From Promethearchaeota archaeon (GTDB lineage: Archaea > Asgardarchaeota > Lokiarchaeia > Sigyniarchaeales > SOKP01), in contig JAUWGH010000001.1 in the NCBI GenBank assembly GCA_030606485.1, positions 210,001 to 242,000 of the forward strand: 32,000 nt of DNA, in the 5' to 3' direction. Both the position numbers and the translations under genes were made by a program. Under the pieces are notes generated by a model, which did not search any database, was not told the DNA's origin, and saw only the letters and a list, made by a program, of their open reading frames with translations. Below are positions 18,820 through 21,320 of the stretch, in pieces; position 1 is the stretch's first letter; each line of letters starts with the position of its first letter.

Positions 18820-19083
18820 TTAATAATATTTTAATTTTTACCCTAATTCTAAAATTAAAAATCTTAAAAATAAAAGGAAAACTTTTAAGAAAGATTTTGG
18901 AAAATCTAATATATAAAAAGTTTAACTTTGATTGTGATAAAAATCTGAATTATATAGAATATTTGGGTTAAATTATTTCCTTTAATTATCTTATTATTAC
19001 TTTTCTTTTAGTTTTATATGATTGTGATGATTCTTTCGATGCAATTAATAATTGATCAAATACAAAAGTTTATATATAAGAAT

Positions 19084-19127
19084 GTCCATTATAAGAGTGG
19101 ACGTCCAAGAATATATTAAACGTCCAA
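19084..19127. promoter_or_regulatory. Cluster of GTCCA/TGGAC elements in the promoter of the pseudo-GTPase gene
   Basis: GTCCA-N9-TGGAC (19084-19102), perfect palindrome TGGACGTCCA (19098-19107), ACGTCCAA repeated at 19101 and 19120, just downstream of a TTTATATA box. Confidence 0.4.
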
Positions 19128-19161
19128 AAAAAAATAAATAAAAAAAAGAGATGGATTTGAA

Positions 19162-20142
19162 TTGAAAAATATAAACACTGAAGGGAAGAAAATAAAAAAT
19201 GGAAAATTAACAAATATACAGTTAGAAAATTTGGAAGTTTTTCTTAAAAAATGTAATTATAGTAAAGAAGAATTGGTGACAGAAAGTGATGTTAGATTAT
19301 CTAGAACCATTCTTGTTAAAGAAGATTGGATTAGGAGCTCTAAAAAGAAAATGAAACATTTAATTCAAGTTCTTATTCAAAATTTTGACCTGAATTGGTT
19401 AATTTCAAAAATCGCATTTGATCTTCATATAAAATATGATAAAACAATCAGTCAAGGACAAGCAGAAGCCATTATACGACGAGTTTTAGGTATAAAACTC
19501 TCAAGCACGGGTAGAAGTCAATTGCATGAATTACGCAAGAAAATCCAAAAATATAAAAGATTTTTAACATATTTTGAAGAATGGGGCAAGCAAGAAGACT
19601 ATACATTAAAAGTTATTATTATGGGCTTAAAAGACGAACAAAAAAATAAATTATTCCTAATACCATCTGAAGTAGAGGGGTCTAATATAACCATTGGAGT
19701 GGAATTCCATAGAAAAATGATAGAAATTTATGATAAAATAGTAGAATTACAGATTTGGGATGTTACAGGGAATAAGAAATTCTCACTCCTAAGACCAAAA
19801 TACTATTTAGGTGCTAAAGGAGCAATTATAACTTATGATAAAGGTGATCGTGAATCATTTGAATTAGCCAAAAAATTTTATTCTGAATTAAAGAAGGTAA
19901 CTAATCTAAAGTTCAAATTAAAAGAAAAAAAAGGAGTTTATGTTGATATTCCTATAACTCTCATCAGCTTTGGCGAATCTAAACTAGTGACTTCAGAAGA
20001 AGGGCAATCTTTAGCAAAAGAATTAGGAGCATATTATTATGAAATGTCAGAGATTGATGAACAAATCTTTGGAGAAGCACTTTCTTATCTTTCCCTTCAA
20101 GTTATTACGAGATGCCAGAAAATGATGGGGAAAAGATACTAA
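19162..20142 (+). CDS. Rab-like pseudo-GTPase with ~145-aa N-terminal extension
   Basis: TIGVEF, LQIWDVTG, RPKYYLGAKGAIITYD and GQSLAKELGAYYYEMS are Rab-like; G1 is GLKDEQKN and G4 NKxD is absent. Confidence 0.78.
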   Translation: MKNINTEGKKIKNGKLTNIQLENLEVFLKKCNYSKEELVTESDVRLSRTILVKEDWIRSSKKKMKHLIQVLIQNFDLNWLISKIAFDLHIKYDKTISQGQAEAIIRRVLGIKLSSTGRSQLHELRKKIQKYKRFLTYFEEWGKQEDYTLKVIIMGLKDEQKNKLFLIPSEVEGSNITIGVEFHRKMIEIYDKIVELQIWDVTGNKKFSLLRPKYYLGAKGAIITYDKGDRESFELAKKFYSELKKVTNLKFKLKEKKGVYVDIPITLISFGESKLVTSEEGQSLAKELGAYYYEMSEIDEQIFGEALSYLSLQVITRCQKMMGKRY

Positions 20143-20185: not shown

Positions 20186-20710
20186 ATGAGATTATTAATT
20201 TTAAGTTATTTCGATAAAATAATTGGTCCAAAAATTTTTTTAAAGGTACCAGATAATTATAATAGCAATTATCTGCAATATATCCCTAATTTAATAGATT
20301 ATTATGATGAAGGTTATTTCATTCATGAATTTGTTATATTAAAAACCGCAAATCTTATTTTTCAAATATCTAGTCCATTAGCAAGAGGATATATGGAGAT
20401 TGCTATGATATCAATAGTACTTCTTAATGAAGAGATAAATCCTAATTTTTTTCAGGAATCATTAAAATATTTTGTTTTTGAGATAAAAAGAATAAATGAT
20501 ATATATCAGGGATTTTACATTGAAAAAGAAGAAATCAAAGGTACTCGTAAAGCGTATATTAAAATGAAAGATCTGATGAATTTAATTTATAATTCACTTC
20601 CTAAAAAAATCTTATTCAGAAGATTTAATATTATACCATTTCAAATTTCTTATCAAATTTGCAAAATAGGAAAGAGTAGAAGAAATCTGAAAAACATTAG
20701 AGAATTTTAA
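20186..20710 (+). CDS. uDENN/longin-domain protein resembling folliculin/SMCR8/NPRL2
   Basis: N-terminal ILSYFDKIIGPKIFLKVP and FQISSPLARGY resemble the F-x3/4-GP and LARGF motifs of eukaryotic longin GAP subunits (recognised by eye). Confidence 0.6.
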   Translation: MRLLILSYFDKIIGPKIFLKVPDNYNSNYLQYIPNLIDYYDEGYFIHEFVILKTANLIFQISSPLARGYMEIAMISIVLLNEEINPNFFQESLKYFVFEIKRINDIYQGFYIEKEEIKGTRKAYIKMKDLMNLIYNSLPKKILFRRFNIIPFQISYQICKIGKSRRNLKNIREF

Positions 20711-20759: not shown

Positions 20760-21320
20760 TCATCTATAACATATTAATCCAAATCGATATATCCAACGTT
20801 TTGGAGGCCATTCTAACCTAAAATTTAAGGATTTTACCGTTTTATCCACATCAATCCCTACCGCCTCCATCGAATATCTCATCTCATCCGGATAACGACA
20901 TGGTTCTCTACTATCATATGTACAAGCACCATCTCGTCGATCATTACAAATTTTACAATGTCCTCCTACCAAAATTATTTTATCTTGGAAAGGCTCTTGA
21001 CTCGTTTCTAAAAATTGATTTATTTCTATATCAAGCCCTTTTCGTGTGATTTCTTTGAAAAATACTTGGTTTCTTATTCTCTCTTCACTCCAATTTGGGT
21101 GTTTTGATCGAGTTTCTTTTATATAGGATTTTAAATCAAATTGAAAGTATATTAGAAAAAATTTTTGAAAGCATGAGATTTCTTCTTCTAAATAGGGCGC
21201 CACTGGGGGACAAGACCAATTATGATCATAATTTGGGCATTTAAAGTTTGGATTAACACAATATGTTTGAACCTTTGGATCGAAAACAATATCATTAAAC
21301 TTAATTTCAATAAAAGGCAT
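20760..21320 (-). CDS. DUF2284 predicted metal-binding protein
   Basis: CPNYDHNWSCPP, GGHCKIC, CRYPDEMRYSMEAVGIDV. Confidence 0.8.
   Translation of the reverse strand: MPFIEIKFNDIVFDPKVQTYCVNPNFKCPNYDHNWSCPPVAPYLEEEISCFQKFFLIYFQFDLKSYIKETRSKHPNWSEERIRNQVFFKEITRKGLDIEINQFLETSQEPFQDKIILVGGHCKICNDRRDGACTYDSREPCRYPDEMRYSMEAVGIDVDKTVKSLNFRLEWPPKRWIYRFGLICYR

Follow-up and report, generated by a model that had tools for sequence, protein, structure and literature searches.

Proteins of the Rab family are recognised by short RabF motifs: RabF1 (IGVDF), RabF2 (KLQIW), RabF3/4 (around YYRGA...YD), and RabF5 (LVGNK). In Ras S17N and Rab S22N mutants, the rest of the P-loop is kept, as are the G4 and G5 motifs. 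Both GDP and the guanine nucleotide exchange factor (GEF) are still bound, and the exchange factor is trapped. Other relatives of small GTPases, in eukaryotes, are class-i pseudoGTPases, a type defined previously (PMC12490416). Examples are AAGAB psGD, the pG1 and pG2 domains of p190RhoGAP, and CENP-M (PMC12490416, PMC5593906). In bacterial conflict systems, adaptor domains (EAD or death-like) are joined to Ras-like AP-GTPases, and animal DAPK combines ROC-COR with a death domain (PMC8195603). Here, we describe a gene from a Promethearchaeota archaeon (assembly GCA_030606485.1), which lies in a 32,000 nucleotide stretch of contig JAUWGH010000001.1 (positions 210,001 to 242,000; hereafter the window, in which all positions are numbered from the first letter). 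The gene encodes an N-terminal helical domain followed by a Rab-like pseudoGTPase (pseudo-G) domain. Taken whole, the explanation that we consider best, and hold with moderate confidence, is a Rab-derived binding module that does not switch, and that would partner a subfamily of canonical Rab-like GTPases.

The small-GTPase homology of residues ~146-322 is far above chance level. Rab/Ypt proteins, and Asgard Rab-like GTPases, are the best matches by both sequence and fold (Rab1a 2RHD, Sec4, and the Thor-Rab of PMC10933270). The Pfam Ras profile matches residues 174-307 (E = 5.6e-22). Note that this match starts only at profile position 28, leaving out strand 1 and the P-loop, as fits a P-loop that has been lost. 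A phmmer search of PDB sequences placed Rab1a (2RHD), Sec4, and Ypt1 at the top (E = 1.5e-16), and the Rab1a alignment pairs GDSGVGKS with GLKDEQKN. A full-length AlphaFold2 (AF2) model, made using 23 relatives, has the alpha/beta fold of small GTPases (predicted local distance difference test, pLDDT, 83.5; predicted template modelling score, pTM, 0.56). With this model as the query, Foldseek returned Rab3A, Rab1b, and Rab43 (E ~2e-11, target TM 0.7-0.77). The sequences I-G-V-E-F, L-Q-I-W-D, and Y-Y-x-G-A-x-G are shared with Rab/Ypt proteins, the last lying within R-P-K-Y-Y-L-G-A-K-G (residues 211-220). Of the RabF features, F1, F2, and the YYxGA part are retained, and F5 is lost together with G4.

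Residues conserved in the pseudo-G domain are mainly K150 and G155, near strand 1, the I-G-V-x-F strand, W199, F207, Y214, and G217. Three positions in the beta2/beta3/switch-II core (F182, W199, and Y214) we take to be those of the Rab hydrophobic triad, through which effectors are bound. All three are retained in the family and this, as judged from the alignment, fits a binding surface. Unlike Rab/Ypt proteins, the pseudoGTPase has a hairpin insert before strand 5 and a 145 amino acid (aa) N-terminal domain, and is without a C-terminal lipidation motif. The insert contains an invariant T247, with L249, K250, and F251 each at least 90% conserved. In the AF2 model it is predicted to form a small beta hairpin (strands 250-252 and 260-262), and Rab1a shows no equivalent of it when the two sequences are aligned.

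To describe the nucleotide site, motifs were compared between 28 pseudo-G domains, nine canonical G domains fused to members of the family (see below), and 32 canonical GTPases of the source genome. Note that one of the 32 canonical rows is gapped over the P-loop columns; G-K-T is present in all 31 scorable rows. The first P-loop Gly occurs in every pseudo-G domain (28/28, compared with 31/32 canonical sequences). Conversely, the second Gly occurs in none (0/28, with Gln in 18/28) and is found in 31/32 canonical sequences. The P-loop Lys is present in 8/28 pseudo-G domains, and Ser/Thr in 12/28 (Asn in 6/28), where canonical sequences have Lys in 31/32 and Thr in 31/32. Similarly, the switch-I (G2) Thr occurs in 12/28 and 31/32, respectively. 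The beta2 strand of the pseudo-G domains keeps Gly (28/28) and Phe (27/28). At G3, Trp is found in all 28. The G3 Asp is reduced to 19/28 (canonical 32/32) and the Gly to 9/28 (canonical 29/32). The catalytic Gln, present in 22/32 canonical sequences, is in at most one of the 28, since it falls outside the five commonest residues of that column. No pseudo-G domain has the G4 sequence NKxD (0/28), for which canonical proteins have Lys and Asp in 32/32, and Asn in 21/32. Finally, the G5 Ala, found in 19/32 canonical sequences (Ser in 12), is outside the five commonest residues in the pseudo-G column, and the G5 Ser-Ala pair is in none of the 28.

By these counts, G1, G2, G4, and G5, the motifs that contact phosphate, Mg, and guanine, are lost in every member, and G3 is weakened. 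The signatures that define a functional Rab or Ras protein were looked for and are missing: GxxxxGK[ST] at G1, the conserved Thr at G2, DxxGQ with its catalytic Gln at G3, NKxD at G4, and Ser-Ala at G5. Hence, on motif grounds, the protein is not a functional Rab family member. The domain is very probably nucleotide-free. A GTPase fold lacking the nucleotide-binding motifs is what marks class-i pseudoGTPases, which neither bind nor hydrolyse GTP, and we infer this absence of binding for the Asgard protein. The likeness to the eukaryotic class-i proteins extends to eroded nucleotide motifs, to apparent conservation as a protein-binding module, and sometimes to tandem G-like domains. Differences are that the Asgard family has an independent origin, from archaeal Rab-like proteins, carries another kind of accessory domain, and is repeatedly found fused to a live GTPase; its loss of nucleotide binding is also read from sequence.

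Could the domain bind a nucleotide in an atypical way? Such a protein would hold GTP, ATP, or another ligand through non-canonical residues, and be either a switch or constitutively loaded (class ii or iii). The invariant first Gly of the P-loop, the 19 domains with the G3 Asp, and the well predicted fold are all compatible with this. The P-loop Lys and Ser/Thr, and the switch-I Thr, are unconserved, and NKxD and the G5 Ser-Ala are absent throughout. Furthermore, AAGAB, with a comparable loss of motifs, binds no nucleotide (PMC12490416). We consider atypical binding decidedly unlikely.

These results bear on an original prediction, made from the sequence of the gene, which called the protein a Rab-like pseudoGTPase with a natural S17N-type P-loop. 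The first part is borne out by the Pfam, PDB, and Foldseek matches, and by loss of G motifs in 28/28 domains. The motifs quoted in that prediction (G1, TIGVEF, DVTGN, RxxYYxGAxG, and SFGES) were verified codon by codon against the window DNA and all are present where described. The S17N comparison did not survive. At the aligned position, this one protein does have Asn after Lys, as the mutants do. Unlike in the mutants, other pocket motifs are absent, and only a minority of the family have the Asn (6/28) or the Lys (8/28); no member has the second Gly, NKxD, or the G5 Ser-Ala pair. Since the Asn and preceding Lys are unconserved, and other contacts have gone, the likeness to S17N is coincidental and confined to one sequence. 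Trapping of a GEF is not indicated; it needs an otherwise working nucleotide pocket, the motifs for which are absent here. The more general idea of a scaffold or decoy is a reasonable, if tentative, reading.

Next, consider the family to which the gene belongs. A search of 5.8 billion proteins gave ~57 clusters that match over nearly the full length, with E values between 1e-185 and 1e-54; every one comes from Asgard metagenome bins. A further 17 clusters, with longer forms, are likewise all from Asgard metagenome-assembled genomes. In a sample of 301 genomes from the phylum, the gene is present in 22. All belong to one family, f1, in which 21 of 68 genomes are positive, not counting the source genome, and they are spread over three genera. 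There is a single copy in 21 of the 22 (G113 has two), and a search of the source genome found only the copy described here. In a phylogenetic tree, the 28 pseudo-G domains form one clade with a long stem (Shimodaira-Hasegawa-like approximate likelihood ratio test, SH-aLRT, 100). The ratio of non-synonymous to synonymous substitution (dN/dS, or omega) is 0.14-0.31 in 14 pairwise comparisons. By domain, values are 0.09-0.35 for the N-terminal domain and 0.18-0.37 for the G-like domain. Such ratios indicate that purifying selection acts on both domains and that the gene is maintained, rather than being a pseudogene. Degenerate motifs shared family-wide, a single clade, and low dN/dS together indicate that the nucleotide site was lost long ago, in a change common to the family and since maintained, and not through decay of one copy. 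We found no published account of this family, or of pseudoGTPases in Asgard archaea. Such proteins are not mentioned in PMC10933270, PMC4915359, or a 2026 preprint on structural clustering.

A decaying gene, once a Rab-like GTPase and now heading for loss in this strain, was a case that the original prediction named as refuting it, with intact homologues and relaxed selection on this copy. One observation leans that way. The closest relative, P0003 (91% identical), begins at an ATG 16 residues earlier. In the window, translation in frame upstream of our start retains the P0003 residues R-D-G-F-E, with a TAA further upstream at 19135-19137, and there is no in-frame ATG. Hence, the TTG at 19162 is the first usable start, and the start of P0003 is unavailable. 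Against this, the frame at 19162-20142 (+) is uninterrupted and complete, the 15 N-terminal residues are variable and disordered throughout the family (by alignment and model), and selection is purifying. Degenerate G1 and G4 motifs, which the original prediction had proposed to look for in homologues, are shared by all 28; none is intact. Conservation across the family refutes the notion of decay, and we see next to no chance that it is right.

Evidence for a partner comes from longer members of the family. The N-terminal and pseudo-G domains occur alone in proteins of 278-333 aa. Others (~510-545 aa) have, C-terminal to these two domains, a canonical small GTPase whose G1, G3, and G4 motifs are intact. 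In at least 17 clusters (~575-690 aa), the same arrangement is preceded by CDC48_N and CDC48_2 domains. A form with an additional, C-terminal Arf-like domain was seen once (743 aa). In trees, the fused G domains cluster with two stand-alone GTPases of the source genome (SH-aLRT 99 and 95). These are encoded on contigs C1 and C10, at C1:475130-475690 and C10:198305-198835, and share 55% and 49% identity, respectively, with a fused G domain; for every other GTPase of the genome, identity does not exceed 37%. By Rosetta-stone logic, the C1 and C10 GTPases are candidate partners in trans. The C10 gene is ~31 kb upstream of the pseudoGTPase gene on the same contig. It begins a cluster (C10:198305-200419, ~9.6 kb before the window) encoding the GTPase, a thioredoxin, a weakly V4R-like protein, and a second GTPase, and the cluster adjoins an IS605 OrfB/Cas12f-like gene. 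The C1 gene is between genes for a RelA/SpoT-like protein and a DUF998 protein.

Two properties of the fused G domains are relevant. First, six of the nine aligned have Gly in place of the catalytic Gln (W-D-I-A/S-G-G; P0007, P0040, P0011, P0036, and P0039 are among the fused proteins concerned). Hence, hydrolysis may need help in trans, and the Gly-bearing domains are likely to be slow hydrolysers that require a residue from elsewhere. Second, when the pseudo-G clade was constrained to group with the fused-G subfamily, log-likelihood rose by 7.9 over a free quick tree (approximately unbiased, AU, test, p-AU 0.66). A possible origin of the pseudoGTPase family is therefore a tandem duplication of the GTPase, after which one copy degenerated.

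In sister lineages, the unit of N-terminal and pseudo-G domains is continuous with a working GTPase, which suggests a fixed partnership between the unit and this switch. The gene in the window would then encode the simplest version of a modular protein family, present in a single family of Loki-type Asgard archaea. Members would combine a conserved helical N-terminal domain, a long amphipathic helix of basic character, and a Rab-derived class-i pseudoGTPase. The pseudo-G domain would not switch, and would instead be a binding module of permanent shape. Its partner would be the particular canonical Rab-like GTPase subfamily identified above, attached C-terminally in sister lineages and separately encoded here. 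In those lineages CDC48_N, a domain that binds substrates or adaptors, often sits N-terminally. In our proposal, the dead and live G domains would pair in cis within fused proteins, and in trans in the source genome, so that the live one is held, regulated (for example, activated), or localised. The N-terminal domain and stalk would mediate assembly or targeting. The original prediction had looked to regulators of Rab proteins as targets; the fusions point to the canonical GTPase.

Several considerations weigh against this proposal. By the AU test, duplication is allowed rather than demonstrated, and long branches are involved. The candidate partner is proposed from fusions alone, and these are seen in a sister subclade; the subclade of the window is itself never fused and the genes for the candidate partners are not adjacent. 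The canonical subfamily related to the fused G domains occurs in 68/71 genomes of family f1, at 1-10 copies, including genomes with no pseudoGTPase. It is so nearly universal that co-occurrence is uninformative about pairing. The conserved beta2/beta3 residues may just hold the fold together. Finally, in the full-length model, the relative arrangement of the domains has low confidence (pTM 0.56). As a separate observation, the three genera that bear the pseudoGTPase include g2 and g4, in which most genomes have 3-10 copies of the canonical subfamily; genomes of the other genera in family f1 mostly have 1-3.

The N-terminal domain had been described as an unknown domain of ~145 aa. No family match was found for it, and it is better conserved than the G domain. 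In an alignment of 23 sequences, 17 of the 27 invariant columns are in residues 96-146. A separate model of the domain (pLDDT 83.7, pTM 0.77) predicts six helices. The 30-residue helix 115-144 has a hydrophobic stripe and conserved Arg/Lys residues and, in the model, continues into strand 1 of the G-like domain. There is no Pfam match, even at E values up to 10, and no match in the ESM Atlas, in PADLOC, or in the PDB by Foldseek. Of the structural work that the original prediction had advised, modelling gave a six-helix bundle and the Foldseek search of the PDB returned nothing. The domain is a candidate new fold family. A second rare family (P0121, P0123, P0126, P0128, and P0210-P0212; 255-330 aa) has only the conserved C-terminal half of the domain, and no G domain. 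Here, the block W-x-I-S-K ... I-S-x-G-Q-A ... L-S-S-T-E-R-S-x-L-H-E-L-R-K-K-I follows an unrelated region of ~145 aa. Its presence on proteins lacking a G domain suggests that the block is itself a mobile module. This second family was not found in the source genome.

The bundle has weak structural likeness to death folds, and this prompts an alternative. The N-terminal domain might be a true but highly diverged death-like domain, driving homotypic oligomerisation; the dead G domain would in that case be a sensor or platform. The protein would then be an archaeal counterpart of bacterial proteins joining an adaptor domain to a Ras-like AP-GTPase (EAD-NTPase proteins), or of DAPK/ROCO-type proteins. 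Like those proteins (PMC8195603), it has a small helical bundle N-terminal to a Ras/Roc-like domain; part of the helical domain recurs on a second protein family. A search of PDB sequences with a profile of the domain found no death domain, the best match being an SMC3 fusion at noise level (E = 0.054). No second, EAD-type copy of the domain was found in the source genome. In addition, the six helices are not conserved family-wide. One subclade, with proteins of ~280 aa, has no equivalent of residues ~45-76, which contain helices 3 and 4. For this reason, we keep the death-fold assignment as a minority hypothesis, and consider it unlikely. If true, a death-fold plus Ras-like design would exist in the closest prokaryotic relatives of eukaryotes.

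The basic helix invites another explanation, in which the helix-loop-basic-helix block binds nucleic acid, and the dead G domain of this DNA-binding regulator is a sensor or dimerisation module. The conserved basic residues (R118, R125, K126, K127, and K/R130) do follow a short helix. We regard DNA binding as very improbable and return to the paired binding module as our preferred explanation. Features of the gene, and of its neighbour, are listed in Table 1.

Table 1. Positions of features of the pseudoGTPase gene and its downstream neighbour in the window.
Feature	Window positions	Strand	Basis
Whole gene, 326 aa, TTG start, TAA stop: N-terminal helical domain and Rab-like pseudoGTPase	19162..20142	+	Open reading frame (ORF) list, translation, DNA, full-length homologues
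Predicted six-helix bundle, residues 18-108 (helices 18-30, 35-39, 54-58, 64-75, 77-91, 98-108)	19213..19485	+	Structure model
Most conserved block, residues 96-146: T-I-S-Q-G-Q and L-S-S-T-x-R-S-Q-L-x-E-L-R-K-K-I, including helix 115-144	19447..19599	+	Alignment, model
Rab-like pseudoGTPase domain, residues 146-322	19597..20127	+	Pfam Ras, PDB Rab1a/Sec4, Foldseek Rab3A/Rab1b, monophyly with 27 other pseudo-G domains
Degenerate G1 (P-loop) G-L-K-D-E-Q-K-N, residues 155-162	19624..19647	+	DNA, motif comparison
I-T-I-G-V-E-F, residues 176-182, RabF1-like beta2 strand, retained	19687..19707	+	Motif comparison
W-D-V-T-G-N, residues 199-204, weakened G3, catalytic Gln substituted	19756..19773	+	Motif comparison
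Family-specific insert between helix 3 and strand 5, residues 247-261, with T-N-L-K-F motif (247-251)	19900..19944	+	Alignment, model
S-F-G-E-S, residues 269-273, at position of G4 N-K-x-D	19966..19980	+	Motif comparison
M-S-E at G5 position (T-S-A in reference GTPase)	20044..20052	+	Motif comparison
Downstream gene, 174 aa, putative longin, 43 nt away; neighbour only	20186..20710	+	ORF list

In both eukaryotes and bacteria, small GTPases have longin and roadblock proteins among their regulators (PMC10933270). The adjacent gene, for a putative longin (20186-20710), raises a further explanation. The two proteins might be partners, with the pseudoGTPase as a fixed partner or decoy substrate, mimicking the pairing of Rag or Rab proteins with a longin GTPase-activating protein (GAP) or GEF. 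Both genes are on the same strand, with a gap of 43 nt, and the known role of longin and roadblock proteins as small-GTPase regulators (PMC10933270) is in keeping with this. Against it, none of the 22 other loci has a putative longin gene beside the family gene. Moreover, the putative longin belongs to a large paralogous family, found in 71/71 genomes searched, with or without the pseudoGTPase, and has no close orthologue (best identity 48%). The link to longins, raised in the original prediction, thus stems from adjacency in this one genome (0/22 other loci). A functional connection is possible in this strain and finds no comparative support; as a general account of the family we think partnership with the longin quite unlikely.

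More broadly, we rejected the idea of a conserved operon, because neighbours vary among subclades (22 other loci). In the ~280 aa subclade (L020, L021, L022, L025, and L027), there is a conserved divergent neighbour, encoding a leucine-rich repeat (LRR) protein of 290 aa (for example L021:323-1195, minus strand; Pfam LRR_4, E = 2e-46). This may recall LRR-Roc designs or, alternatively, be plain synteny of close relatives. A gene for a DUF2284 protein (predicted metal-binding) is near the pseudoGTPase gene only in the window (20760-21320, minus strand) and at a distant locus (L016:3110-3676). The window has a G+C content of ~30%, and the spacer 5' of the pseudoGTPase gene is 342 nt long and A+T-rich. 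Within it (window 19069-19128), there is a TATA-like element, TTTATATATAA, at 19069-19079. The sequence ACGTCCAA then occurs twice, ~20 nt apart, together with a related ATGTCCA. The element and its repeats could be a putative promoter plus operator.

The origins of the switches that govern eukaryotic membrane traffic are being sought among Asgard archaea. Published work on these organisms describes live Rab, Arf, and Rag-like GTPases, with longin and roadblock partners, and we found no paper on dead GTPases. The pseudoGTPase, and the candidate GTPases encoded elsewhere in the source genome, make a concrete pair for testing in vitro. If our explanation is true, designs in which a switch is combined with a fixed partner, and dead enzymes reused as binding modules, exist in Asgard archaea.
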